This document shows, piece after piece, positions 3,376 to 50,423 of a stretch of 64,000 nt of DNA. A program made the position numbers and the translations under genes. The stretch is from the UHGV virus genome UHGV-0098755. One strand, 5' to 3'. Source of the stretch: a virus. Position 1 is the stretch's first letter, and the number at the start of each line of letters is the position of its first letter. The notes below the pieces were generated by a model that was given only the letters and a program-made list of their open reading frames with translations, was not told the DNA's origin and ran no database searches.

Positions 3376-4032
3376 ATGGCAGCACCTAGAATATCATTTT
3401 CGCCCTCTGATATTCTGTTTGGTGTTCTAGATCGCTTGTTCAAAGATAACGCTACCGGGAAAGTTCTTGCTTCCCGGGTAGCTGTCGTAATTCTTTTGTT
3501 TATAATGGCGATTGTTTGGTATAGGGGAGATAGTTTCTTTGAGTACTATAAGCAATCAAAGTATGAAACATACAGTGAAATTATTGAAAAGGAAAGAACT
3601 GCACGCTTTGAATCTGTCGCCCTGGAACAACTCCAGATAGTTCATATATCATCTGAGGCAGACTTTAGTGCGGTGTATTCTTTCCGCCCTAAAAACTTAA
3701 ACTATTTTGTTGATATTATAGCATACGAAGGAAGATTACCTTCAACAATAACTGAAAAATCACTTGGAGGATATCCTGTTGATAAAACTATGGATGAATA
3801 TACAGTTCATTTAAATGGACGTCACTATTATTCCAATTCAAAATTTGCTTTTTTACCAACTAAAAAGCCTACTCCCGAAATAAATTACATGTATAGTTGT
3901 CCATATTTCAATTTGGATAATATCTATGCTGGAACGATAACCATGTACTGGTATAGAAATGATCATATAAGTAATGACCGCCTTGAATCAATATGTGCTC
4001 AGGCGGCCAGAATATTAGGAAGGGCTAAATAA
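3376..4032 (+). CDS. t: Holin (218 aa)
   Basis: 218 aa, N-terminal TM segment, large periplasmic domain; length and sequence as T4 holin. Confidence 0.9.
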   Translation: MAAPRISFSPSDILFGVLDRLFKDNATGKVLASRVAVVILLFIMAIVWYRGDSFFEYYKQSKYETYSEIIEKERTARFESVALEQLQIVHISSEADFSAVYSFRPKNLNYFVDIIAYEGRLPSTITEKSLGGYPVDKTMDEYTVHLNGRHYYSNSKFAFLPTKKPTPEINYMYSCPYFNLDNIYAGTITMYWYRNDHISNDRLESICAQAARILGRAK

Positions 4033-4305
4033 TTATTTGTTCGTATACATCTCTAGATATCGATATACACTCTCAAAACCCTCGTTGAATTCGTCGATGA
4101 GGGTTTTCTTATCTTCTTGGGTTAATTCAGAAACAATTTTACGGAATGAATTCTGATTTAACTTTCTACCTTCATGTGTTACTCCAATCTCATTCAGAAA
4201 TGCAATAAAATTAGCACGATTCTCAACAATATCTTCTCTGGAAAATTTAATCAAAATAGATGCAATAGTAATAATTTCACGAACTGTATCAATGTTTTTA
4301 TTCAT
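4033..4305 (-). CDS. asiA: Anti-sigma-70 factor AsiA (90 aa)
   Basis: 90 aa MNKNIDTVREII...; convergent with t, stop codons abut. Confidence 0.9.
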   Translation of the reverse strand: MNKNIDTVREIITIASILIKFSREDIVENRANFIAFLNEIGVTHEGRKLNQNSFRKIVSELTQEDKKTLIDEFNEGFESVYRYLEMYTNK

Positions 4306-4317
4306 TAACTATACCAC

Positions 4318-4470
4318 TCAATTAGTTGACTTTGTTATAATATCATCAGACACTTGATTTGTAAACTGGTCTGTGTTATTTTCTTCAAAAATTTTTTCTA
4401 CGAATTCCTTGAACGATTCACGTTCCTGAGCTACATTATGCTCGATTACCTTTTCAAGATTATGACTCAT
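4318..4470 (-). CDS. Small ORF (50 aa), start overlaps arn stop (ATGA)
   Basis: Hand-translated: MSHNLEKVIEHNVAQERESFKEF...; below ORF-track size cutoff. Confidence 0.4.
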   Translation of the reverse strand: MSHNLEKVIEHNVAQERESFKEFVEKIFEENNTDQFTNQVSDDIITKSTN

Positions 4471-4745
4471 TCGAAATAATCTTCAATTTCGTAATCATGG
4501 ACATAAATCATTATAGTTTTTAATACATCATCAATACTTTTTCCTGGAGCTGGAATTACGTAAAAATATCCCGCCTTTGAGTTATCTTTATAAGTTCCAA
4601 CCAAGAAATCATTATTTTCAAGATGTAGTTCTTCAACTAATTCATCGACAATTGAGTGGTATAAATTTGGTAGAAACTTATATAGCTTTTCTAGAATATC
4701 AATTTTGATTGTATATTGAACCACAGATTGAGAATCAATAATCAT
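4467..4745 (-). CDS. arn: Anti-restriction nuclease Arn (McrBC inhibitor), 92 aa
   Basis: 92 aa acidic protein at T4 arn position next to asiA. Confidence 0.75.
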   Translation of the reverse strand: MIIDSQSVVQYTIKIDILEKLYKFLPNLYHSIVDELVEELHLENNDFLVGTYKDNSKAGYFYVIPAPGKSIDDVLKTIMIYVHDYEIEDYFE

Positions 4746-4828
4746 AGACCTTCCCCTTATGTTTCTGTTTGCGATTAGATTCTTTAAACGCTTTCTTCTT
4801 ATCTTTATGAACAGAAGCTTTATTAAAA

Positions 4829-5047
4829 TTATGTTTTGCGACTAAATTGTTCATAGTGCTGAATCACCTCTCTCAAACATTTGCATGTGAATGAAAACTT
4901 TTTAGCTACACCACATTCAAATATATGTTCTCTTAAATCACGTGTGTCAGTATATCCCATCTCAACAATAAAATGCCGTATTAGATTTTTATCTTTATCA
5001 TTGAGAGAGTTAAAATAATCGGATTTTGAATTAATTTCCCTGGCCAA
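4829..5047 (-). CDS. Hypothetical protein (72 aa), arn.x block
   Basis: ORF in syntenic arn-motA interval. Confidence 0.45.
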   Translation of the reverse strand: MAREINSKSDYFNSLNDKDKNLIRHFIVEMGYTDTRDLREHIFECGVAKKFSFTCKCLREVIQHYEQFSRKT

Positions 5048-5327
5048 ATTGAATCACCTTCAGTTGACGTTTTAGTTCTTTTATCATCTCTTCGTTCATC
5101 GCAATATAAAGATCGCGTAAAGCAGGTTTTAGCATTCCATTTATTGGGGAACTAAATGGACATACATAATCTTTTCCTACGAGCTTTTTAGCGAATTCCA
5201 TATTACAGAACTGAAATGCCGGTTCATTGGCATAAATTCCCCATTTGGTTGACATCATTTTATTGGCATATTCCAATGCTTGAATTTGATTAGTAATTCC
5301 ATCAATTTGAAACTTTTTAATATTCAT
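5031..5327 (-). CDS. Hypothetical protein (98 aa)
   Basis: ORF, overlapping start/stop with neighbours. Confidence 0.5.
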   Translation of the reverse strand: MNIKKFQIDGITNQIQALEYANKMMSTKWGIYANEPAFQFCNMEFAKKLVGKDYVCPFSSPINGMLKPALRDLYIAMNEEMIKELKRQLKVIQFGQGN

Positions 5328-5788
5328 TAGTAAAGGTCCTCAGAGTAAAGTTCTTTTTCACTACCGCCGCGTTCAATACGTACTTGTCCAGCGTAAGTTG
5401 CAATAATCATTGCTTCTTCACGTGTCCAATAATTACTATATTGGTCAATAAACCCTTGGTCATCATCACAAACTTGTTGAGTAACTAATTGGGGTTTAAC
5501 TACATCTAAAACTTCGGCCATATCTTTAGAATAATGACGAGCACCCGGAATAATAAGAGTTCGTCCATCTTTTAATTTAAAACGGTTGGCTGCACAAACA
5601 ATTCGTCGTTGATACTTTTGGTTTTCATCCCAGTATGCAGACTGCCAACAGATTTCAGGAACTTCTTTTAGAATATCTTCTTCTGTGCATTTATAACCAT
5701 GTGCTTTAAATTTTTCAACAAGACTTTCTGGAGTTTCACGAGATAAAGGAACATTCAGCATTTTTAAACGATTAATAAATGGATTCAT
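5327..5788 (-). CDS. Hypothetical protein (153 aa)
   Basis: ORF; stop overlaps next start. Confidence 0.5.
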
Positions 5789-6114
5789 TTAAACCATCCT
5801 TTAATACGCTGCCACAAAGTTTTCTGTTGAGCTTTGTTAACACCAATTGAGCGAATAACTGGTTGAGATTCCTGGAATTCTTTATAATCAGCGAGGTAAA
5901 TTTCGTAAGCTGAATCCGTAAAGGAACTTATCGCTGCCATGAAATTGTTGCGAATACCTACTGGAGCATCTTTACTTTCACGAATAATCATGTATTTACC
6001 GGTCTTAATCTTTACGATAGTTCCAAGATAAGCTCCATGGTACCAGATATCCCACCCCTCTTGAGTGGGTTCTGCACAACGACGAAGTTCATTGATAATT
6101 TCTAACTTGTTCAT
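5785..6114 (-). CDS. Hypothetical protein (109 aa), motA.1 position
   Basis: ORF immediately upstream of motA. Confidence 0.5.
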
Positions 6115-6124
6115 TATTTATTCC

Positions 6125-6760
6125 TCACAGTTCAGATGCTACAGTAATTACAGCTTCAATGTTTTCTGCCGAGCGTTTAATGTCAAGATACACATTACCG
6201 TTTTTAGCGATTTTACATGACATTCCGATATCAGTAAATTTCTGAATATGATGTTCCATCATTTTGTATCCAAAAATTCGCATATTTCCATTGTTGTTAA
6301 TTTCAAAATTACGAATTCCGTGAGTGCGTTTTTCTAAAATAGCGAGATAGTTACTGCGATAAGTTTCAACCTTTTTAAGAACAAATCCATTTTCATCTAA
6401 AAGTTTTAACATGAAGTCTTTATCTTCTTCCATATCAGAAGTAATCTCACGAGCTTTACGAGTTGCTCGTTTTTTCAGCAGTTCTGGAGCATTTTCCTGC
6501 GCGTATAAAGTTGCTGCGTTTGAAATAATATCTTGAGCTTCACCTGTAATGATTAATCCATCACCAGATTTCTCCACCAGGCCTTTTTTAATCAATACCC
6601 CAATATTACTATTAACTACTGCATTACCTAAATCTGGATGCACCTCACGAACTTCTGCGGCTGTAATGAAATCTTTCTTAGCAATAGTAATTAAAATCGC
6701 AGCAGTTTTTTCATTCAGAACATCGTTAGAAGCTTTGATGATGTAAGTTACTTTAGACAT
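6125..6760 (-). CDS. motA: Middle-promoter transcription activator MotA (211 aa)
   Basis: 211 aa; position between arn block and gene 52. Confidence 0.85.
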   Translation of the reverse strand: MSKVTYIIKASNDVLNEKTAAILITIAKKDFITAAEVREVHPDLGNAVVNSNIGVLIKKGLVEKSGDGLIITGEAQDIISNAATLYAQENAPELLKKRATRKAREITSDMEEDKDFMLKLLDENGFVLKKVETYRSNYLAILEKRTHGIRNFEINNNGNMRIFGYKMMEHHIQKFTDIGMSCKIAKNGNVYLDIKRSAENIEAVITVASEL

Positions 6761-6794
6761 TTTCTAATCTCCGTAATTCTGTATCAGTAGTTGA

Positions 6795-6850
6795 TAGTTG
6801 TATAGTACCATAGAATGCTTTGGTTGTAAACCGTTTTGTGAAAAAATTTT
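6795..6850 (-). promoter_or_regulatory. Early promoter (GTTTAC -35, extended -10) for motA
   Basis: - strand reads AAAAATTTTTT..GTTTAC..N17..TGGTACTATACA; member of conserved repeat family. Confidence 0.55.
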
Positions 6851-6854
6851 TGAA

Positions 6855-6882
6855 ATAAAAAAGGGAGAGCCGAGGCTCTCCC
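6855..6882 (-). terminator. Rho-independent terminator (9-bp stem GGGAGAGCC/GGCTCTCCC plus U-tract)
   Basis: Perfect inverted repeat at 6863-6882 followed on - strand by UUUUUUAUUU. Confidence 0.6.
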
Positions 6883-6887
6883 TAAAA

Positions 6888-7037
6888 TTACTGCATGAAT
6901 GTGATAACTATCATGATAACACGTTGAATTCCGAACGCAAGAAGACCTCCTGCTACGGCTGGAACAACGCCTAAACCCGCCAGTAAAATGCTACCAGATA
7001 CTAATGCAGCGCTTGTAATACCTATGAATGGACTCAT
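6888..7037 (-). CDS. Hydrophobic micro-protein (49 aa), start overlaps gene 52 stop
   Basis: Hand-translated MSPFIGITSAALVSGSILLAGLGVVPAVAGGLLAFGIQRVIMIVITFMQ. Confidence 0.45.
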   Translation of the reverse strand: MSPFIGITSAALVSGSILLAGLGVVPAVAGGLLAFGIQRVIMIVITFMQ

Positions 7038-8362
7038 TTGATTTCCTCTAAATCTTTGGTGTATTCAGTAACTACATCAGTAGTTTTCCAATATTCGTTT
7101 TCTTCTTTTTTAGCTTTAGCTTCTTCAGCAAGTTTCTTCGCTTCATCGGAAGTCATATGAAAAATATTCATTCCAACTAGTTTATCAACATAAGAAGAAT
7201 ACATATCGATTTTCGAAAGTTCTTCGGTCAGTTCTTTACGAGTTTTACCTTGTACAACAATTTCACCTGAAATTACTTTCTTAATGAAATGTGCCTTGGC
7301 AAAGGCTAAACGAAATGCTGATTCAGTTTCTTTGATTTTGTTATCAATTCGTTTTTGGACATAAGTTTTACGAACTTCAACAAAGTCTTTAATTAAATCA
7401 ACTACGTTATCGTAAACTTGCAGCTTTCCTTTTTCATTAATGACGGTAATATTCTGGGAACGACGCTCAATCAACCCGAAGTCTTTCATGATTTTTGCAT
7501 GGCGTTCTTCTTCGTTATCGCTCAAAGAGTATTCTTTGCGGAATTTAATTTTAAAGCCAAAACCATGCTCACCACAAGCATCATCCCACGTAATGAAGCC
7601 TTTATCTTCAAGCGGGTCTAAGATTTTACTCACATAAGTTTCACGATCATACTTATACGGAATCTCAGTGATGTGCATTTGAGTTCGTGAAGTAAACTTA
7701 TATGTTCCACGAATTTCATATTGTCCATCAATTTCAACGACTTCACCACGAAATTCTGGGAATTCTACCTTCGGTTTAGTTACTTTCTTTCCTTGAAGAG
7801 CTTGCAGTACAGCTTTCTTAACAGAAGAAACGCTATGAGGAAGAATGTAAGTTGCATAACCAGTTGCAATACCGGAAACGCCATTAAGAAGAACAGTAGG
7901 AATAACAGGCAAATAGAAAGCAGGCGGAATGTGTTCTTTATCTTGATGTACCGGAGCATATTCAGTATCTTTATATACGTTATAGAAATTTTTACTTACA
8001 CGAGCAAAAATATAACGACTTGCTGCTGCTTTTTGAACGGTACGAGAACCAAAGTTTCCTTGACCATCTAATAGAGGAAAGTTATTATTCCAAGTATTAG
8101 CCATCAAAGCACCTGCGTCTTGCGCAGAGTTTTCACCATGATGATATCCAAGGTCCGCTACACCACCTGCAATAGAAGCGAGTTTGTGAAACTTATCTTT
8201 ATTTCCTCGTGCCAAATCAAGAGCTCGAGCAATAACAAATCGTTGAACTGGCTTAAATCCATCAATCATATTTGGAATGGCACGATTTTCAACCGTGTAC
8301 ATAGCATAAGCCAATGCTTCATTATCAATGATACTTTTTAAATCGCGATTATTCAGTTGCAT
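7034..8362 (-). CDS. 52: DNA topoisomerase II medium subunit gp52 (442 aa)
   Basis: 442 aa GyrA-like cleavage subunit; synteny. Confidence 0.9.
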   Translation of the reverse strand: MQLNNRDLKSIIDNEALAYAMYTVENRAIPNMIDGFKPVQRFVIARALDLARGNKDKFHKLASIAGGVADLGYHHGENSAQDAGALMANTWNNNFPLLDGQGNFGSRTVQKAAASRYIFARVSKNFYNVYKDTEYAPVHQDKEHIPPAFYLPVIPTVLLNGVSGIATGYATYILPHSVSSVKKAVLQALQGKKVTKPKVEFPEFRGEVVEIDGQYEIRGTYKFTSRTQMHITEIPYKYDRETYVSKILDPLEDKGFITWDDACGEHGFGFKIKFRKEYSLSDNEEERHAKIMKDFGLIERRSQNITVINEKGKLQVYDNVVDLIKDFVEVRKTYVQKRIDNKIKETESAFRLAFAKAHFIKKVISGEIVVQGKTRKELTEELSKIDMYSSYVDKLVGMNIFHMTSDEAKKLAEEAKAKKEENEYWKTTDVVTEYTKDLEEIK

Positions 8363-8366
8363 AAAT

Positions 8367-8507
8367 TTACCATACTAGTGAATGTAGTGCCATAATAACA
8401 TCAGAAATGAAAAGCACGACTTGAATTAATCCGAACATTACTCCATAATATAGTGCTACCAATAAAGCAGCAAGGGCTACTGAGTAGCCCAAGATTTTCT
8501 TAATCAT
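8367..8507 (-). CDS. Membrane micro-protein (46 aa), 52.1 position
   Basis: Hand-translated MIKKILGYSVALAALLVALYYGVMFGL... Confidence 0.4.
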   Translation of the reverse strand: MIKKILGYSVALAALLVALYYGVMFGLIQVVLFISDVIMALHSLVW

Positions 8508-8655
8508 TAGATAACAACGCAAATGTTAAATATGCACACATACCCTGAGCTAAAGCTTGCGAAAACACGCTGCTGACATCAATACAGATAGTTAAAACAC
8601 ATGCTACTATCCAACAAATAAATGAAATAACTCCTAATAATTTTGCGATATTCAT
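8500..8655 (-). CDS. ac: Ac-like membrane protein (51 aa)
   Basis: 51-codon hydrophobic ORF with GAGG SD, between stp and 52 as in T4. Confidence 0.5.
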   Translation of the reverse strand: MNIAKLLGVISFICWIVACVLTICIDVSSVFSQALAQGMCAYLTFALLSND

Positions 8656-8662
8656 ATTTTCC

Positions 8663-8743
8663 TCACTGGCGTCCGAAGACGCCTTTAGTTTTAAGATTAT
8701 TACGATAGAACTGCATCACGTGTTCGTTATGGAAATTACTCAT
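8663..8743 (-). CDS. stp: Stp peptide (26 aa), activator of the PrrC anticodon nuclease
   Basis: Hand-translated [26 protein letters not shown]; start overlaps ndd stop (UAAUG). Confidence 0.75.
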
Positions 8744-9201
8744 TAATATGCCTGCAAAACAAATTTAAAGTTATCAGCCAACATACGGTTCATTTCTTCA
8801 AGTGTTTGATACTCAGAATGATGATTACGAGTAAACGCCAAAGCTAACTGACCTTTACCAAATCCCGTCGTCAGAGGTTTCATCTTAGAAGCAGGCAGAT
8901 AAAACACTGTGTATGGAACATTGTTATTTGCAATAGTACGCGCAAGTTGAGACCGGCGTTGACGAATATGACTTAAAACCGCACTGAATCCTTGCTTAGA
9001 ACGCTGATTACCTACATAAAATCGCGCAGATACACACGGACTATCAAATGGACGACCATCTAATTTACTTACTAAAAAGTAAAATCCAGGTTTAGATAAA
9101 ATATCTTTATGTGGAACTCCCAAAAACCATTCACCGTTCTTGATTGTACCAATAACGGTAGCGCCTGCATTGTTCAGATCAGTAACAGTCATATATTTCA
9201 T
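8743..9201 (-). CDS. ndd: Nucleoid disruption protein Ndd (about 152 aa from Met17 of the 168-aa ORF)
   Basis: [18 protein letters not shown]...; ORF track extends to 9249. Confidence 0.8.
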
Positions 9202-9261
9202 ATTAATTTCCTCTAAATTATTTTCTACTCCAAGGCCGCATGAATACACACGGCCATTAAA

Positions 9262-9477
9262 TTAATCATCGCAGTCGACGCTTAATTCCCAGAACTCTTC
9301 TACAGTATAAGTTTCAGTATCATTTTCAATACAGAAACGTTCATTACTATTATTTGCTAAAGTAGCATTAACTGTCGGTTTCTCGCTAGTGCTCTTAAGA
9401 GGTGAAATACGAATTAACTGATCACCGTTATCTAAACAAAAAATTTCACCAACTTTTACATCTTTAAAACTTTTCAT
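9262..9477 (-). CDS. Hypothetical protein (71 aa), ndd.x
   Basis: ORF. Confidence 0.5.
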   Translation of the reverse strand: MKSFKDVKVGEIFCLDNGDQLIRISPLKSTSEKPTVNATLANNSNERFCIENDTETYTVEEFWELSVDCDD

Positions 9478-9592
9478 AATTCACCTCAGGGAGTATAAAA
9501 TCCAAATGCAGTTGTTGACCATCCCATCCAATATGGAAAATTTGCGCCAATGTAAAACATAAGAATATAAAACCAAATGTTTAGTAAATTCA

Positions 9593-11328: not shown

Positions 11329-11352
11329 TAAAACAAAAGGGCCGAAGCCCTT
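11329..11352 (-). terminator. UUCG-tetraloop hairpin plus U-tract
   Basis: GGGC-TTCG-GCCC on - strand followed by UUUUGUUUU. Confidence 0.5.
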
Positions 11353-11550: not shown

Positions 11551-11578
11551 AATTTTCCTTAGTTAAGGGCCGAAGCCC

Positions 11579-12517
11579 TTATTTAAATTGTTCAGTAACG
11601 TCTTCAACTACTTCGTATTGGCAGGTACGCATTTTAGCATCGTTGTAATCAATCGGAATTGATACTACATCACGCGGATGCACTTTAACTTTTACAACTC
11701 GACTGGTTGAACTGCCAAAGTGACGAATATAAGATTTAGAACACACATGCAGACCACGAGAACAAGTTTGTGTATCATCGTCATTCACACGAGTACGTGG
11801 CATTTTAACTACTTTACCCGGACTGTTATCAAAGGTGTTTGAGTGACAGTCAAAGTAGTTGTCACGAACTACTTTCCAAGCATAGAAGTAACCATCTTCG
11901 GTGATTTCAATATCGTTTGCTACCAAGAAATCAAAGAGTCGAGATACCGCTTTTTGGCTTGGGTTTTCCAACAGATTTTCCAAGAACGGAAAATAAAATT
12001 CAAAGTTTTCACCTTTTTCCATCGAATCGAGAATACGATCAACTAAACCAGACCGCAATTCAATATTTTGATAGAACAAGCTTCCACCTTCAATTCGAAC
12101 ATCACCAGAAATATATTTTTCAACAGCGCGACGAACATTAATTTTTTGCGCAGCTTCTTCCAACTTATCTGCTACAAGCAGATTAAGAATTTCCTGGAAG
12201 TTTGAATGAGTATTAGGAGTTGCGTTATAAGTTACACCGTCAACAGTAATTGAAATGAATTTTTTAGATGCATTCCAAATAATATCAGATTTAGCAACTG
12301 GAGCAATAACTGCATCGCTATTAACTTTAACTGTAATATCACCGCTAATAGTAACTTTGGAACGCTCAGCTTCTTCAGCATTTTTCAAAACACGACGGAT
12401 GGTGTCAACCGATACACCTTGCCAATCAGCCAATTCCTGCTGAGTATAATTACCACTTGAATACAGTTTAACAATTTCAGCTTGTTCGTTTTTGGTCAGG
12501 CATTTAATATTGTACAT
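11579..12517 (-). CDS. rIIB: rIIB protein (312 aa)
   Basis: 312 aa, downstream of rIIA. Confidence 0.9.
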   Translation of the reverse strand: MYNIKCLTKNEQAEIVKLYSSGNYTQQELADWQGVSVDTIRRVLKNAEEAERSKVTISGDITVKVNSDAVIAPVAKSDIIWNASKKFISITVDGVTYNATPNTHSNFQEILNLLVADKLEEAAQKINVRRAVEKYISGDVRIEGGSLFYQNIELRSGLVDRILDSMEKGENFEFYFPFLENLLENPSQKAVSRLFDFLVANDIEITEDGYFYAWKVVRDNYFDCHSNTFDNSPGKVVKMPRTRVNDDDTQTCSRGLHVCSKSYIRHFGSSTSRVVKVKVHPRDVVSIPIDYNDAKMRTCQYEVVEDVTEQFK

Positions 12518-14939: not shown

Positions 14940-14980
14940 CAATTAATTATACCACATCCTTGTGGTAAAGTAAACTATTG
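14940..14980 (-). promoter_or_regulatory. Early promoter GTTTAC-N-TGTGGTATAAT with palindromic spacer
   Basis: RC reads GTTTACTTTACCACAAGGATGTGGTATAAT. Confidence 0.6.
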
Positions 14981-16795
14981 GCTCATCCATTCTTTACGAA
15001 GGTCAGCATTATCTCCCATGAGCATTTCAAAAAGTTCTTTCCAATTCTCAGGAAGTTTAACAACATCATATACTGGATTTTGAATCATCTCACGATATTC
15101 AGATTTTTCCAAAGAGCCAAGTCCCTTAATATAACGGATGTTATGTTTAGGTAGAGCATCTTTGGCACTCTCATATTCAGCGACTGTATAAAACCATTCT
15201 TGTTTTTTACCGACCTGAGCGATGATTACAGGAGTTTTGACAAAGCGAATTCTTCCTTGTTCAAACAGTTCTGGCCAATTACTGAAAAATCCGAGCAGAG
15301 AAGGATAAATGCTTCCTAGACCATCGTGGTCAGCGTCAGTCATAATAGCAATATTATGATAATTCAAGTTTTCGGCTTTTTCACCAAGAACTAATCCAGT
15401 GATTGCGCAAATATCAAACAGTTCTTTGTTTTTAAGCATATCAGCATATGACATACCCCAACTGTTGAGAACTTTACCACGTAATGGATAACCACCATGA
15501 AGTTCTTTATCACGAACATCAATAAGATATCCAATAGCAGAATCACCCTCAGTCAAGAAAAGAGTAGTATCAGCATCTTTACCACAAAGATTCGCTTTGA
15601 TATGTTTATGAACCTTAGCTTTAGAAGCCTTTTTAGCTGCTTTAGTTTCTGCTGCTTTTTCTGCCGCCAATTTACGAGCTAATGCTGCTTCAATAATCGG
15701 CATCAAAATCGCTTCATTATTCAAAATAGCACGTGAAATCTTTTTAGCATCAAGTTGAATATGACTACGGATTTCACCAAAAGGAGAAGTAAGTCGTTCT
15801 TTAGTTTGAGAATCAAATCGCATGTTTTTCATATCACGAACAAACATAACGATAGTCAAACATTCTTTAACGCGTGCTTTAGTTACATCAATTTTGAACT
15901 TGCGTTTGATTTGTGGAATAAGGTCTTCACAAATATCATCCATAACACAGTCAATGTGATGGCCACCATTCTTAGTATGAATGTTATTGACGTACGTCAA
16001 CTGACGAAAACCATCCGGTGAACGACCAACCGCAATAGAACAGTTTTCTTGTTCTTGAACGATAGCATGTTCATCATATTGGCGTGCATATTTCTTAAAA
16101 TTACCCTGAACCTTTTTACCATTAAAGGTAAATTGAATATCAGGATAAACTACTGCAAGTGTCTGGAGACGATCCAGTGTAATGTCAAGATAAACTTGGG
16201 ACAACTCATTAGTTTCAAATGACATAAAATCAGGAATGAAAGTAACACGAGTTCCTTTCCATTTTCCAGGAATATCTTCCCATGATTTATTTTCCATGCC
16301 ATTTGAACAACGAACTACAATATTATTTTGACCATCACCAGTTTCACCGACAAACATCACAGAAAAAATGTTTGTCAAACTAGAACCAACACCATTCATA
16401 CCGCCAGTGACGCGTTCTTTATCATCACCGAAGTTACCACCTGCTTTTGGAATAGTCCATGCAGCAACAGGACCAGGAATTTCTTCACCGGTAGGTGTTT
16501 TAACCATAGCCTGTGGAATACCGCGACCGTTATCTTCAACTGTTACTTGATTGTTTTTAATAGTAACATTAATTTTATTTGCGAATTTAAACTTAGTACG
16601 AATACCTTCATCTACTGAGTTATCGATAATTTCATCAATAAGCTTAACAAGACCAGGTACATACTGAACACTTTCCCATTTACCAAACAGAAAGCGCTCA
16701 TGCATTTCATTAGCTGAAGAGCCAATGTACATGCCGCTACGCTTTTTGATATGTTCAATATCGCTCAGAATTTTAATTTCATTCTTAATCATCAC
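14975..16795 (-). CDS. 39: DNA topoisomerase II large (ATPase) subunit, uninterrupted gene 39 (606 aa)
   Basis: GyrB-like GHKL ATPase plus TOPRIM in one ORF; no gene 60 split. Confidence 0.85.
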   Translation of the reverse strand: MMIKNEIKILSDIEHIKKRSGMYIGSSANEMHERFLFGKWESVQYVPGLVKLIDEIIDNSVDEGIRTKFKFANKINVTIKNNQVTVEDNGRGIPQAMVKTPTGEEIPGPVAAWTIPKAGGNFGDDKERVTGGMNGVGSSLTNIFSVMFVGETGDGQNNIVVRCSNGMENKSWEDIPGKWKGTRVTFIPDFMSFETNELSQVYLDITLDRLQTLAVVYPDIQFTFNGKKVQGNFKKYARQYDEHAIVQEQENCSIAVGRSPDGFRQLTYVNNIHTKNGGHHIDCVMDDICEDLIPQIKRKFKIDVTKARVKECLTIVMFVRDMKNMRFDSQTKERLTSPFGEIRSHIQLDAKKISRAILNNEAILMPIIEAALARKLAAEKAAETKAAKKASKAKVHKHIKANLCGKDADTTLFLTEGDSAIGYLIDVRDKELHGGYPLRGKVLNSWGMSYADMLKNKELFDICAITGLVLGEKAENLNYHNIAIMTDADHDGLGSIYPSLLGFFSNWPELFEQGRIRFVKTPVIIAQVGKKQEWFYTVAEYESAKDALPKHNIRYIKGLGSLEKSEYREMIQNPVYDVVKLPENWKELFEMLMGDNADLRKEWMSQ

Positions 16796-16814: not shown

Positions 16815-16846
16815 GGAATATTATACTCCAATAATCATAAAGCTAA
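16815..16846 (-). promoter_or_regulatory. Middle promoter (MotA box AGCTTTA, 12 bp, TATAAT) for gene 39
   Basis: RC: TTTAGCTTTATGATTATTGGAGTATAAT. Confidence 0.5.
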
Positions 16847-16861
16847 AGGCCCGAAGGCCTT

Positions 16862-17131
16862 TTATTTAAAACGAATAGTCGAATCCTTGAAGAATAGTCC
16901 AGAACATACTGTTCCTTCTACTTTCTGCCCAGTAGGTCCAATAGCACGAAATCCAGTATGCTGGAAATCATTTTCAGAGCAACCGAACCAATTATATCCA
17001 GTGATTTCAATATTAGTAAAACCACTTGAAGACAAAACTTTGGTTGCATTATCAGCATCAGTACATCCTATTAAAGACACTGCTAATACTAATGCTGCAA
17101 TAGAACGATTAATATATTTCATAATTTTCAC
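16862..17131 (-). CDS. Lipoprotein (89 aa), 39.1 position
   Basis: Signal peptide with lipobox LIGC. Confidence 0.6.
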   Translation of the reverse strand: MKIMKYINRSIAALVLAVSLIGCTDADNATKVLSSSGFTNIEITGYNWFGCSENDFQHTGFRAIGPTGQKVEGTVCSGLFFKDSTIRFK

Positions 17132-27368: not shown

Positions 27369-27467
27369 AGTGCTCTCCTCTATAAGATAATTCTATTATA
27401 CCACACTCATTTTGATATGTAAACTGCAAAAACGAAAAAAGGAACCCCGAAGGATTCCTTAAATTAT

Positions 27468-33267: not shown

Positions 33268-33630
33268 TTAAAAGAATTTAAATTTTTTCTTTGACCTTTT
33301 ATTAAATGCATCTTGTAGTTGCATTGTAATACATTTTTCTACATGAGGAGCTAACTCAGCTTTTCTTTCTTGGTCAAGAACAGCAAAGTCCATTACAACC
33401 TTTCCATCAACCCAATCCAGTTTAGTTACATACACTATATGTGTAGAACCATCTTCTAGTTTAATGACAATCTCCTGGATAACATTTTCCATGGCAGATT
33501 TAATTATCTTAAGAGATTCATTAAAAAGACGTTCTTTTCTTTCTTCTTCCCCCTCCGAAGAGGGGGATTCATCGATAATTTCTAGATCTAAATCTAAATC
33601 ATCTTTACTCATTAAATTCTTCCATATCAC
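33268..33630 (-). CDS. 40: gp40-like protein (120 aa)
   Basis: Position between 41 and uvsX. Confidence 0.5.
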   Translation of the reverse strand: MIWKNLMSKDDLDLDLEIIDESPSSEGEEERKERLFNESLKIIKSAMENVIQEIVIKLEDGSTHIVYVTKLDWVDGKVVMDFAVLDQERKAELAPHVEKCITMQLQDAFNKRSKKKFKFF

Positions 33631-40151: not shown

Positions 40152-40193
40152 CTTGATATATTATACTCCAAATAAGGGGCCGAAGCCCCTTGC

Positions 40194-41128: not shown

Positions 41129-42088
41129 TCACTTCCACTGCATTTCACATGCCAATTGAATGAAAAGATATGCTAAATGTAATTCAGTATTAGCCGCAAT
41201 TCCATGGTACTGGTTATTTTCACCAACAATTTCATACATACGAATAATACTTTGCGGAGTTACGCGTGTATAGATTTCTTCAGCAAGTTTACCAACGAAC
41301 CACGAATAATCAGCCGCATATTTTGGTGCTAAAGCTCTGAGTTGTTTAACATCTTTATTTTTGAGAGACTCAAGAACATCATCAATAGCACCACGATCGT
41401 TAGTAACCAGTGATAAAATACCAGCATCCAAAACACCTTTAGATGAATAACTATCGAGCTCGCCAATAGTTTTACGAAAATCAGGAAAATTCTTTTTAAC
41501 CAAAGCTGCTACAACTTTCATATCAGCTATAGCAATTCCTTCACGCTTGCAGATTTCAGTCAATCGACGAATCATCTGCTTCATCATTTCAATTTTATCT
41601 TCATCGGTTGGTTGACCGAATGTAATAACTCGGCAGCGTGACTGAAGCGGTTTAATAATACCATCAATATTGTTAGCAGTAATAATAATACTACAGTTTG
41701 AACTATAAGCTTCCATAAAGGAACGAAGATGTCGCTGAGACTCTGCTAGCCCTGAGCGGTCAAATTCATCAATAACAATTACTTTTTGACGACCATCAAA
41801 TGAAGCTGCACTAGCAAAATTAGTCAAAGGACCACGAACGAAATCAATTTTACAATCTGACCCATTCACAAACATCATATCAGCATTTACATCATGACAC
41901 AATGCTTTTGCTACGGTTGTTTTACCTGTTCCTGGAGAAGGAGAATGAAGAATAATATGTGGAATCTTACCTTTACTTGTAATAGATTTAAAGGTTTCTT
42001 TATCAAAGGCGGGAAGAATACATTCATCGATAGTAGATGGACGATATTTCTGTTCAAGAATGTGTTCTTTTTCATTTACAGTAATCAT
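41129..42088 (-). CDS. 44: Clamp loader ATPase gp44 (about 319 aa)
   Basis: AAA+ Walker A GTGKTT. Confidence 0.85.
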
Positions 42089-42139
42089 AATTTCCTCATT
42101 CAAGTTTTAGTGTAAATTATAAAGGGCCGAAGCCCTCTA

Positions 42140-42826
42140 TTAAAAATCGTGGGTAGAATCAGCTTCAAGAGCTACTACATAATTCGCGTGTTCACCTTCA
42201 AATTTAGCAGCACCTTGTTTACCTTTTGCCCAGAGCAGAAGTTTATAATTTCCTGGTTGCATTTTCATATTTGCCATATTGATAATGAAATTAAATGTAT
42301 TTTCACCATCATAATCACCAAGAGTCAAAGAATATTTAACACGGGTTAAAGCAGAATCTTCTACTTTATTAAAACCGTTAATTACGATTTTACCTTCTTT
42401 TACTGTGATAGCAATTGTATCAATCTGCAGACCGCGAGATACACGCAACAGTTGTTGAAGGTCTTCAGCTTTAATTTCAGTAACAACAGATGCTACCGGG
42501 AATGGAATTGGTTTATTAGGAGCAACGACTGTACTCGGATCAGCTGCCGGCCAAAAAATTGTTGAACGGGCATCAGCAATTTTAATATTACCATCTTCTG
42601 ACTGGGAAATTTCTGCATCATCATTAACTAGAGACAGAATACCGAGAAAACCGTTCAAATCGTAAATCGCTACATCAAAATCAATAGTGTCAGAAATATT
42701 TGCTTCCGCATAAGTTGTACCATTAACCGCGCGAGTCATAATAAATTGACCGGATTTAAGCATAATACCGGAGTTAATAGTAGCGAAATTTTTAAGCAGA
42801 GCAGTAGTATCTTTAGACAGTTTCAT
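42140..42826 (-). CDS. 45: Sliding clamp gp45 (228 aa)
   Basis: 228 aa; synteny. Confidence 0.9.
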   Translation of the reverse strand: MKLSKDTTALLKNFATINSGIMLKSGQFIMTRAVNGTTYAEANISDTIDFDVAIYDLNGFLGILSLVNDDAEISQSEDGNIKIADARSTIFWPAADPSTVVAPNKPIPFPVASVVTEIKAEDLQQLLRVSRGLQIDTIAITVKEGKIVINGFNKVEDSALTRVKYSLTLGDYDGENTFNFIINMANMKMQPGNYKLLLWAKGKQGAAKFEGEHANYVVALEADSTHDF

Positions 42827-46670: not shown

Positions 46671-46846
46671 ATATCAAGAACCGTCATTGAAATGCAAAAT
46701 AAAATTATTGAAATAAATCCATCTGGAGTACTAAAGAACCCAATCCAACACGCTCTGGTGAATAGATAAAATGCAAGAAAAAGTATCACATATCCAAGAA
46801 ATATCATTATATCAAACTCCGTATAAAGCTAAAGGGCCGAAGCCCT

Positions 46847-48049
46847 TTATTTTGTAATAATGTCAAACTGCTCTTTAAAGCAGAAGCTTGAATCTTGGTG
46901 CTGATACAAAAATTCATAAGCTTTTTCACGTTCACGGTCATAAAGAGCTCGGTCAGATGACAGTTCTTTAATACGTTCAAATGTTGATTCCATGTCATTT
47001 TCATCAAACCAAACGATACCGCTATCGTGTGAAATTAATGGAGTATTATCAACACGGAATTTTAAATTTTCGCCAGTAGATTTCCAAAATACTGGAATTG
47101 TTCCACATGCACCAAGCTCGAGATGAGTGTATTCTAAAGAACGCTGTAGATATTTTTTATCTAATTTACTCAGCTGATAACCAAATCCGGATTTACTCAT
47201 GCGTTCAAGCATTTCGCTATTTACATAACGGTCAAGAATTTGCGTTGGCAAATTAGGAGCAATTTTAATTTGGTCTACTTGATGAAGACGATAATACTCG
47301 TATGGAATTCCTTTTTCTTTAATAGGAATGAACGCTGGAGAACGTTCCAGACCTTCCATAATAGTACTTAGTCCTGCAGGTTTAAGATGTTTTTCATGAA
47401 AATCAAACATCTGATAAAAGCCTTTCCATGTAGTAGTACGACCAATCCAACGGTTGATATTCATGTTAATTTCAGAAACATCTTTCCAGTAGGTTGATCG
47501 AACCTTCGCAATATCCATAGGAGGCTGAAAGTTATATACGGTCGGTGCTTCTTCAATATCATCAAACAAAGAAACAGTTTCCGGATACCATTCTTTCATT
47601 AAAACTTTATTAAAATCACCATTATCAGAATGGCTAAAAATAACATCAGCTCGACGAACAGTTTCTTCTAATCCCAAATTTCGACGCAAAGAAAGAGAAG
47701 AATGGTCATGCTGATAAACTACAACACGAACCGAAGGTTTAATGTTATCAATAATTTTTTTATAGTTATTAATCGTGTCTTCTTCAACTGAAGTAGCAGG
47801 AACTGAATTGATAACTAGAATATCACAATCATTTACCAGCTTAAGTGTTTTATCGTATTCTTTTGCCAATAAAACTGGAATTGAAAATGACTTATAATCA
47901 TGCGCACAATTACGAGTAAATGATTTATCTTTAGCATAAACCAAAGTTACTTCATGACCATTTTTAATAAACCAATCACGCTGCTCAAGAGAAAATTTAG
48001 TTACACCGCAACCTTCAAGACCTCGAGCCATAAAAATACATACTTTCAT
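46847..48049 (-). CDS. a-gt: Alpha-glucosyltransferase (400 aa)
   Basis: 400 aa at T4 a-gt position. Confidence 0.75.
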   Translation of the reverse strand: MKVCIFMARGLEGCGVTKFSLEQRDWFIKNGHEVTLVYAKDKSFTRNCAHDYKSFSIPVLLAKEYDKTLKLVNDCDILVINSVPATSVEEDTINNYKKIIDNIKPSVRVVVYQHDHSSLSLRRNLGLEETVRRADVIFSHSDNGDFNKVLMKEWYPETVSLFDDIEEAPTVYNFQPPMDIAKVRSTYWKDVSEINMNINRWIGRTTTWKGFYQMFDFHEKHLKPAGLSTIMEGLERSPAFIPIKEKGIPYEYYRLHQVDQIKIAPNLPTQILDRYVNSEMLERMSKSGFGYQLSKLDKKYLQRSLEYTHLELGACGTIPVFWKSTGENLKFRVDNTPLISHDSGIVWFDENDMESTFERIKELSSDRALYDREREKAYEFLYQHQDSSFCFKEQFDIITK

Positions 48050-50170: not shown

Positions 50171-50222
50171 ACATTATCCTCAATTACGTTAAAATTTTAT
50201 TATCCAAAAAGGGCCGAAGCCC

Positions 50223-50423
50223 TTAGCTAAACTGTTTGGCACCCTTCCAGCCTTCGTACATCATTGCGGCTGATATTAATATTGCTCCTGAGCAACTCGA
50301 ATATTTGTGATTCCAAAACCAGTTTAGAAAAACTTCATCATCAATACCTTGGGCTATCATATTTTCAAAGAACTGACGACGAGATTCGGCAATTCGTTGT
50401 GATAATTTAGATTCAGGATTCAT
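50223..50423 (-). CDS. Hypothetical protein (66 aa)
   Basis: ORF. Confidence 0.5.
   Translation of the reverse strand: MNPESKLSQRIAESRRQFFENMIAQGIDDEVFLNWFWNHKYSSCSGAILISAAMMYEGWKGAKQFS

Follow-up and report, generated by a model that had tools for sequence, protein, structure and literature searches.

The stp–ac–52.1 micro-gene block of a T4-like phage and a UUCG hairpin within the stp coding tail

UHGV virus genome UHGV-0098755 was analysed over one stretch of 64,000 nucleotides, referred to here as the window. Its minus strand at 7034–9201 almost certainly holds the stp–ac–52.1 micro-gene block, running from ndd to gene 52 in an early polycistronic unit of a T4-like Tequatrovirus that is not T4 itself. 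The order of the genes (Table 1), their spacing, their junctions and the UAAUG overlap of ndd and stp are those of the T4 reference NC_000866, where ndd, stp, ac and 52.1 encode 151, 26, 51 and 46 residues and are followed by 52. The four protein genes have all been described previously, as has this class of hairpin, and the stp copy is essentially the T4 allele. The orientation of the T4 map is confirmed by the surrounding genes, namely T holin, AsiA, MotA and gp52, and ORFs of 312 and 725 aa located where rIIB and rIIA map. The 1-kb region finds matches in 548 phage records, nearly all of them Tequatrovirus and relatives, the best full-length matches having ~97% identity.

Table 1. Positions of genes and RNA features in the micro-gene block, and of Stp-family ORFs in other phages (positions with an L prefix refer to loci outside the window).
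Feature	Position	Strand	Description
ndd (nucleoid disruption protein)	8743–9201	−	152 aa, ATG at 9201; PF06591 Phage_T4_Ndd, 5.6e-94, 312.6 bits, full length
stp	8663–8743	−	26 codons + UGA; PF08133, phrog_6763
C(UUCG)G hairpin GGCGUC-UUCG-GACGCC	8668–8683	−	stp codons 21–26; 3′ end 2 nt before stp stop
GAGG Shine–Dalgarno of ac	8661–8664	−	overlaps stp UGA stop (UGAGGAAAAUAUG); 5 nt before ac ATG
ac (acridine sensitivity/resistance locus)	8500–8655	−	51-aa hydrophobic protein; phrog_2501
52.1	8367–8507	−	46-aa predicted membrane protein; PF24129/DUF7396
gene 52, topoisomerase II medium subunit	7034–8362	−	442 aa; PF00521 DNA_topoisoIV, 7.4e-77; downstream large gene, same transcription unit
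Stp-family ORF, Tunavirus SA30RD	L008:2001–2081
Stp-family ORF, Klebsiella phage YX3973	L009:2001–2081
Stp-family ORF, Raoultella phage RP180 (Kagunavirus)	L021:1501–1578
Stp-family ORF, 46,219-bp IMG/VR contig	L030:1483–1575		MKQYP N-terminal extension
Stp-family ORF, 37-aa form	L072:1471–1584
Further Stp-family micro-ORFs	L031–L071

Differences from T4 were noted in gene 39 and in ndd. Gene 39 (topoisomerase large subunit; 14975–16795, minus strand) is one continuous ORF of 606 aa, TOPRIM_C part included, whereas in T4 it is split into 39 and 60; the phage is therefore not T4 itself, and the gene-60 translational bypass element is consequently absent. The 5′ third of ndd (9040–9201, minus strand) departs markedly further from its T4 counterpart than other parts of the block do, with several substitutions and one extra codon in a stretch whose T4 counterpart reads KLGGPFSNPCV. 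Because the 3′ two-thirds of ndd, together with stp, are nearly identical to T4, this pattern suggests a recombination boundary inside ndd.

The small ORFs were found with an ORF listing at a 20-aa minimum. At 26, 51 and 46 aa, stp, ac and 52.1 are all too short for a 60-aa ORF cutoff, as the first-pass annotation had pointed out. For 52.1 the listing gives a 51-aa frame from a TTG (8367–8522), and the T4-equivalent ATG at 8507 gives the 46-aa protein; the GTG-extended, 168-aa start of ndd is likewise not T4-equivalent. The 51-aa Ac-like and 46-aa membrane ORFs expected downstream of stp are present, and both are strongly hydrophobic. The same annotation erred in describing stp as flanked by the two membrane micro-proteins: both lie 3′ of stp, and its 5′ neighbour is ndd.

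The assignment of the 26-aa ORF to Stp holds over its whole length. It aligns to T4 Stp (NP_049878) with 26 of 26 residues and 80 of 81 nucleotides identical, the sole nucleotide difference being synonymous, and the N-terminal 18-residue core is accordingly that of T4. It scores 2e-21 (75.3 bits, cutoff 25, residues 1–26 of 26) against PF08133, the ‘Anticodon nuclease activator family’ (Nuclease_act), and 4.4e-21 against phrog_6763; by tblastn, the identical 26-aa peptide occurs in 423 phage records. The peptide is hydrophilic (GRAVY −1.03). The proposed overlap of its AUG with the ndd stop codon is also borne out, the ATG at 8743–8741 and the TAA at 8745–8743 having one base in common.

PrrC is a latent anticodon nuclease that the type IC enzyme EcoprrI keeps masked. 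T4 Stp inhibits EcoprrI and so unmasks PrrC; in prr+ hosts the unmasked PrrC cuts tRNA-Lys, and the cut is repaired by T4 Pnk and Rnl1 (RNA ligase 1) (PMC3014915, PMC12707154). The N-terminal 18 residues of T4 Stp are essential and nearly invariant among T4 relatives; loss of the last eight codons lowers both Stp activities only moderately, and the tail is polymorphic (PMC3014915, PMC12707154). From its 100% identity to the T4 peptide, Stp of this phage is expected to inhibit type IC restriction (EcoprrI, EcoR124I) and to activate PrrC.

The two hydrophobic ORFs are equally close to their T4 counterparts. The 51-aa ORF is T4 Ac (NP_049877) with two substitutions, A27V and V46A (49 of 51 residues, 96%; 8 nucleotide differences); it matches phrog_2501 at 4e-24, matched no Pfam family in a Pfam profile scan, and has a GRAVY of +1.46 with a best 19-aa window of 2.74. 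The 46-aa ORF is T4 gp52.1 (NP_049876) with the single substitution L10V (45 of 46 residues, 98%; 3 nucleotide differences); it matches PF24129/DUF7396 at 1.6e-22 (79.8 bits, cutoff 27, residues 1–46 of 46), has a GRAVY of +1.74 and is a predicted, conserved membrane micro-protein. Lengths, overlaps and hydrophobic character equal those of the T4 proteins, and the substitutions have no known consequence. Ac is a small membrane protein that renders T4 infection acriflavine-sensitive, and it has been proposed in a 2025 preprint to insert in the membrane and interfere with AcrAB-TolC efflux (bioRxiv 10.1101/2025.06.30.662393). By homology, Ac of this phage would have the same role in acriflavine sensitivity.

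A second hairpin lies inside 52.1. Its sequence is GGGCUAC-UCA-GUAGCCC (8474–8490, minus strand), and it is followed by TGCTTTA (8469–8463) and, after 12 nt, by TATTAT (8450–8445). The arrangement at 8445–8490 looks like a candidate middle promoter of the MotA type, set within 52.1, that would serve gene 52. In the record of phage Lutter, the corresponding part of 52.1 bears terminator and promoter annotations. A strict MotA-box pattern gave no match, only the core TGCTTTA being present inside 52.1, and the T4 counterpart of the hairpin differs in having a U-U mismatch as its top stem pair.

The genes of the block are packed with little or no space between them. The UGA stop of stp occupies 8665–8663, the gap between stp and ac is 7 nt, ac and 52.1 overlap by 8 nt (ATGATTAA), and 4 nt separate the end of 52.1 from the gene 52 ATG; a GAGGAAA motif like that before ac also precedes ndd. 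With the UAAUG of ndd and stp and a Shine–Dalgarno site placed on the stp stop, such packing would favour coupled translation. The T4 stp, ac and 52.1 transcripts are classed as ‘early’; the T4 proteome table gives the protein class ‘none’ for Stp, Ac and gp52.1, with peptide-level detection unrecorded (PMC9697503, supplement 4).

The 3′ end of stp encodes a C(UUCG)G hairpin. It is read in codons GGC GUC UUC GGA CGC C(AG), that is, Gly-Val-Phe-Gly-Arg plus the first base of codon 26, and therefore lies wholly within the last eight codons, the tail that is dispensable in T4, where the hairpin sequence is identical. Alone it folds at −10.0 kcal/mol. The stem and loop named in the first-pass annotation are real, and the interval it gave, 8667–8684, is one base too wide at each end, the extra pair being an A-A mismatch. 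Over 131 nt around the hairpin, the fold is no more stable than that of shuffled sequence (z = −0.33).

Hairpins of this kind are strongly over-represented in the window. UUCG-loop hairpins with at least six Watson–Crick pairs, at least five of them G-C, occur four times, as against none in 200 dinucleotide-preserving shuffles. For any stem of at least six pairs there are nine (0.25 ± 0.49 in shuffles), and for stems of at least five pairs with G-U allowed there are 15 (4.2 ± 2.2 in shuffles). The strong hairpins stand mostly at gene ends, and among the minus-strand UUCG-loop hairpins with stems of at least five pairs, eight of 11 are at or directly after stop codons. Only three of the 11 are entirely contained in an open frame, namely the stp hairpin, one at 33548–33567, and a weak, A/U-rich five-pair stem at 41298–41311. 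Rfam covariance models gave no match at gathering score across the whole window.

The hairpin at 33548–33567 (minus strand) has the sequence UCCCCCUC-UUCG-GAGGGGGA, with eight pairs, and is the sole other strong UUCG hairpin wholly inside an ORF; it is near the 5′ end of a gene-40-like ORF (33268–33630; PF11113 head assembly). Hairpins of the type (A)AGGGC-UUCG-GCCCUU are found at or overlapping minus-strand stops at 11337–11352, 11564–11581, 16845–16862, 27439–27460, 40174–40191, 42119–42140, 46830–46849 and 50209–50224. Some of these are followed by U-tracts, and others by Shine–Dalgarno or promoter-like TATAAT sequences.

C(UUCG)G hairpins in T4 mRNAs were first described in 1988 as ‘extraordinarily stable’ (summarised in PMC4371310). 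The stp hairpin resembles them in the UUCG loop, the closing C-G, the G+C-rich stem and the orientation with the transcribed strand. Most examples of the class in the window are of the form (A)AGGGC-UUCG-GCCCUU(U) after a stop codon, whereas the stp hairpin has a GGCGUC stem inside coding sequence: it stands at the stp/ac boundary, yet within the last six codons of stp. It has the look of a regular T4 gene-end hairpin that, for want of space in the 7-nt stp–ac gap, is displaced into coding sequence.

Conservation of the stem extends over Tequatrovirus, Gaprivervirus (with a UUUG loop and a GRP tail), Dhakavirus and 25-aa forms that end GVFGR*. In the 25-aa forms, which come from IMG/VR contigs of ~155–172 kb, codon 26 is UAA and the closing G-C becomes G·U; in one Dhakavirus first stp copy, a C-G pair of the stem becomes U·G. 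Stem changes among the relatives are thus only wobble-preserving (C-G to U·G, G-C to G·U) or confined to the loop (UUCG to UUUG). Codon 26 may specify Gln, Pro or stop, and its first base pairs every time. In Kagunavirus a ...KTKGVFGK tail is coded by GGA/GGG GUG UUU GGA AAA, with which no hairpin is possible. The GVFG tail can thus be encoded without pairing, and the peptide sequence does not by itself dictate the hairpin. Judged from these codon comparisons, conservation of the peptide tail is independent of the hairpin, which is an extra, codon-level feature of Straboviridae.

Tandem duplication of the stp–ac module was observed in two Dhakavirus sequences, phage NC-G (L007:434–1080) and a JS98-like contig (L023:1203–1880). 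The order is ndd, stp#1, ac-like#1, a 5′ fragment of 52.1 joined to stp#2, ac-like#2 and 52.1. In stp#2 the start codon is replaced by CGG and core residues are altered (F4S; V9A and N15I); the NC-G copy may be read as a 35-aa fusion, and the copy in the JS98-like contig has no start left. Between the two genomes, 43 nt of stp#2 are identical, from codon 17 through the hairpin and the Shine–Dalgarno site to the next ATG.

A Tequatrovirus sub-lineage represented by fHoEco02 (L005:701–787) and SHFML-26 (L006:701–787) has a 28-aa Stp with a replaced tail (…KNFGILGSKNS or …GFKNS). The G+C-rich hairpin is missing, and the Shine–Dalgarno site of ac is GGAG. GGAG is the motif cut by T4 RegB. These variants provide a natural control for hairpin function.

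The most likely role of the stp hairpin, advanced here tentatively, is to punctuate or stabilise the RNA where stp meets ac. It would form a barrier there to exonucleolytic or 5′-end-dependent decay, and would be coded in the functionally less important tail of stp because there is no intergenic room. A role as an insulator of the ac ribosome-binding site was also considered and is unsupported, the shifts in accessibility on synonymous disruption of the hairpin being small and inconsistent in silico: the unpaired probability from the ac Shine–Dalgarno to the AUG (GAGGAAAAUAUG) was 0.37 for wild type, and 0.31 and 0.21 for two synonymous mutants.

Rather doubtful, though by some way the best of the rivals, is the reading in which codon choice produced the stp hairpin incidentally, without function, and common descent passed it on within Straboviridae. 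In an alignment of 18 stp regions the stem hardly varies and shows no compensatory double changes, the apparent both-side changes coming from misaligned hairpin-less variants. Third-codon positions are variable at one of four sites in the stem against 12 of 19 in the N-terminal part, and the stem is not significantly more conserved (p = 0.28). Both results, the small in-silico effect at the ribosome site, and the persistence of stp and ac in fHoEco02 and SHFML-26 after loss of the hairpin, are consistent with a by-product. Against it stand the absence from all 200 shuffles of UUCG-looped stems with at least six pairs and at least five G-C, the strong enrichment of the class and its placement at gene ends. 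The stem is, moreover, kept across four genera in which codon 26 changes meaning while pairing stays, and the hairpin is unchanged in the decayed stp copies of Dhakavirus.

Intrinsic termination or attenuation at the hairpin, on the sense strand between stp and ac, is improbable, even though existing records label it a terminator: in MK327936.1, from whose annotation the stp gene is absent, the exact 16-nt hairpin (L074:461–476) appears on the gene strand as a ‘putative transcriptional terminator, -10.30’, and several other records place a ‘terminator’ feature under stp. The sequence after the minus-strand stem is AGUGAGGAAAAUAUG (tail AGUGAGGAAAAU). Termination in the sense direction is disfavoured because no U-tract exists on the gene strand, and a terminator scan made no call there. 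Furthermore, ac, 52.1 and 52, which come directly after the hairpin, rely at least in part on read-through, and in T4 stp, ac and 52.1 share one ‘early’ RNA class (PMC9697503).

Still less probable is an action of the palindrome on the plus strand, terminating antisense or late transcription that enters the early region. The plus-strand stem is followed by T-rich TTTAGTTTTA, and the terminator scan called it terminator-like; however, the loop on that strand is CGAA rather than the stable UUCG, and the remaining strong UUCG hairpins have the orientation of the minus-strand genes. The T4 late-promoter motif TATAAATA is found on neither strand within 3500–9500, and the nearest plus-strand genes end at 4032.

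Scarcely credible is the view that the three small ORFs are untranslated chance ORFs or relics: the T4 orthologues have no listed proteomic detection (PMC9697503) and only a weak AGG precedes the stp start, but T4 genetics and peptide biochemistry for Stp (PMC3014915), genetic and expression evidence for Ac (bioRxiv 10.1101/2025.06.30.662393), curated family profiles for Stp and gp52.1, junction overlaps of the coupling type, and nucleotide differences from T4 that seldom change a residue (1 with 0 aa changed in stp, 8 with 2 aa in ac, 3 with 1 aa in 52.1) all argue for translation.

Peptides of the Stp family also occur outside Straboviridae. A tblastn search and a scan of IMG/VR recovered them from Drexlerviridae, Kagunavirus and other siphoviruses, as micro-ORFs of 25–37 aa with the core xSN[FW]HNEH[VI]MQ[FW]YR..[LI]K, set in tightly coupled early-gene arrays and mostly unannotated (Table 1); OQ469755.1 already bears the family name. 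Carriers include Tls and the ~47-kb Salmonella and Klebsiella siphoviruses YX3973, seszw and VSt472; for Sf12 there is a weak tblastn match only (E = 0.8). All eight representative peptides, four of them siphoviral, score above the PF08133 cutoff at 35–70 bits, a set to which the 37-aa form does not belong. The T4-type and Kagunavirus stp genes are identical at 64 of 75 nucleotides (85%). In one Kagunavirus-like IMG/VR contig (L022:226–447), the Stp ORF continues into the downstream ORF to give a 73-aa product, the result of a frameshift fusion or else of a sequencing error.

In the siphovirus SA30RD, the gene that precedes stp (SA30RD_62) had no Pfam match and belongs to a PHROG family other than that of Ndd, and is therefore not shown to be Ndd-like. 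Stp-like peptides were also sought in 185,579 bacterial and archaeal genomes, with one weak 13-residue match as the only result; such peptides appear to be absent from the scanned genomes and their prophages. None of the papers searched links Stp with these siphoviral groups.

Two linked readings may be drawn from these comparisons, and as a pair they are speculative and on balance unlikely: that the hairpin is a selected RNA element which shaped the Stp C-terminus in Straboviridae, and that Stp is a family shared with virulent siphoviruses rather than a peculiarity of T4. The first would require Arg25 to be coded as CGC and the first base of codon 26 to pair, and in the Dhakavirus duplicates the element outlives stp; if true, an RNA structure is written into the tail of a micro-protein and constrains it. 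If the second is true, PrrC-type guards would be predicted to sense many phage families. The DNA of the siphoviruses that carry Stp-family peptides is not known to have T4-type hypermodification. If it is indeed not hypermodified, the distribution would speak for countering type IC restriction as the primary role of Stp. The siphoviral peptides, the hairpin-less variants and the duplicated modules could give cheap tests of type IC blocking and of PrrC-like guards against non-T4 phages.

The window itself offers the re-identification of three annotated T4 genes and of a hairpin class known since 1988, and in that respect matters little. Its practical value is for annotation: the 81-nt stp lacks a name in most of the T4-like GenBank records listed, being named in only ~6 of 30.

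The closest known system is T4 Stp, which the gene matches in sequence, position, one-base overlap with ndd, 3′ hairpin and downstream Shine–Dalgarno site. Beyond the single synonymous nucleotide, no difference lies within the gene, and the phage differs elsewhere, in an ndd that is one codon longer with a divergent N-terminal third and in the unsplit gene 39. The mode by which Stp inhibits EcoprrI has been described as still unknown (PMC12707154). Stp is like T7 Ocr, the ArdA DNA mimics and ArdB in being an early phage product that blocks type I restriction without blocking modification (PMC3014915, PMC12707154). Unlike Ocr, ArdA and ArdB, Stp is a 26-residue basic or neutral peptide that is specific for type IC enzymes, and is not an acidic DNA mimic.
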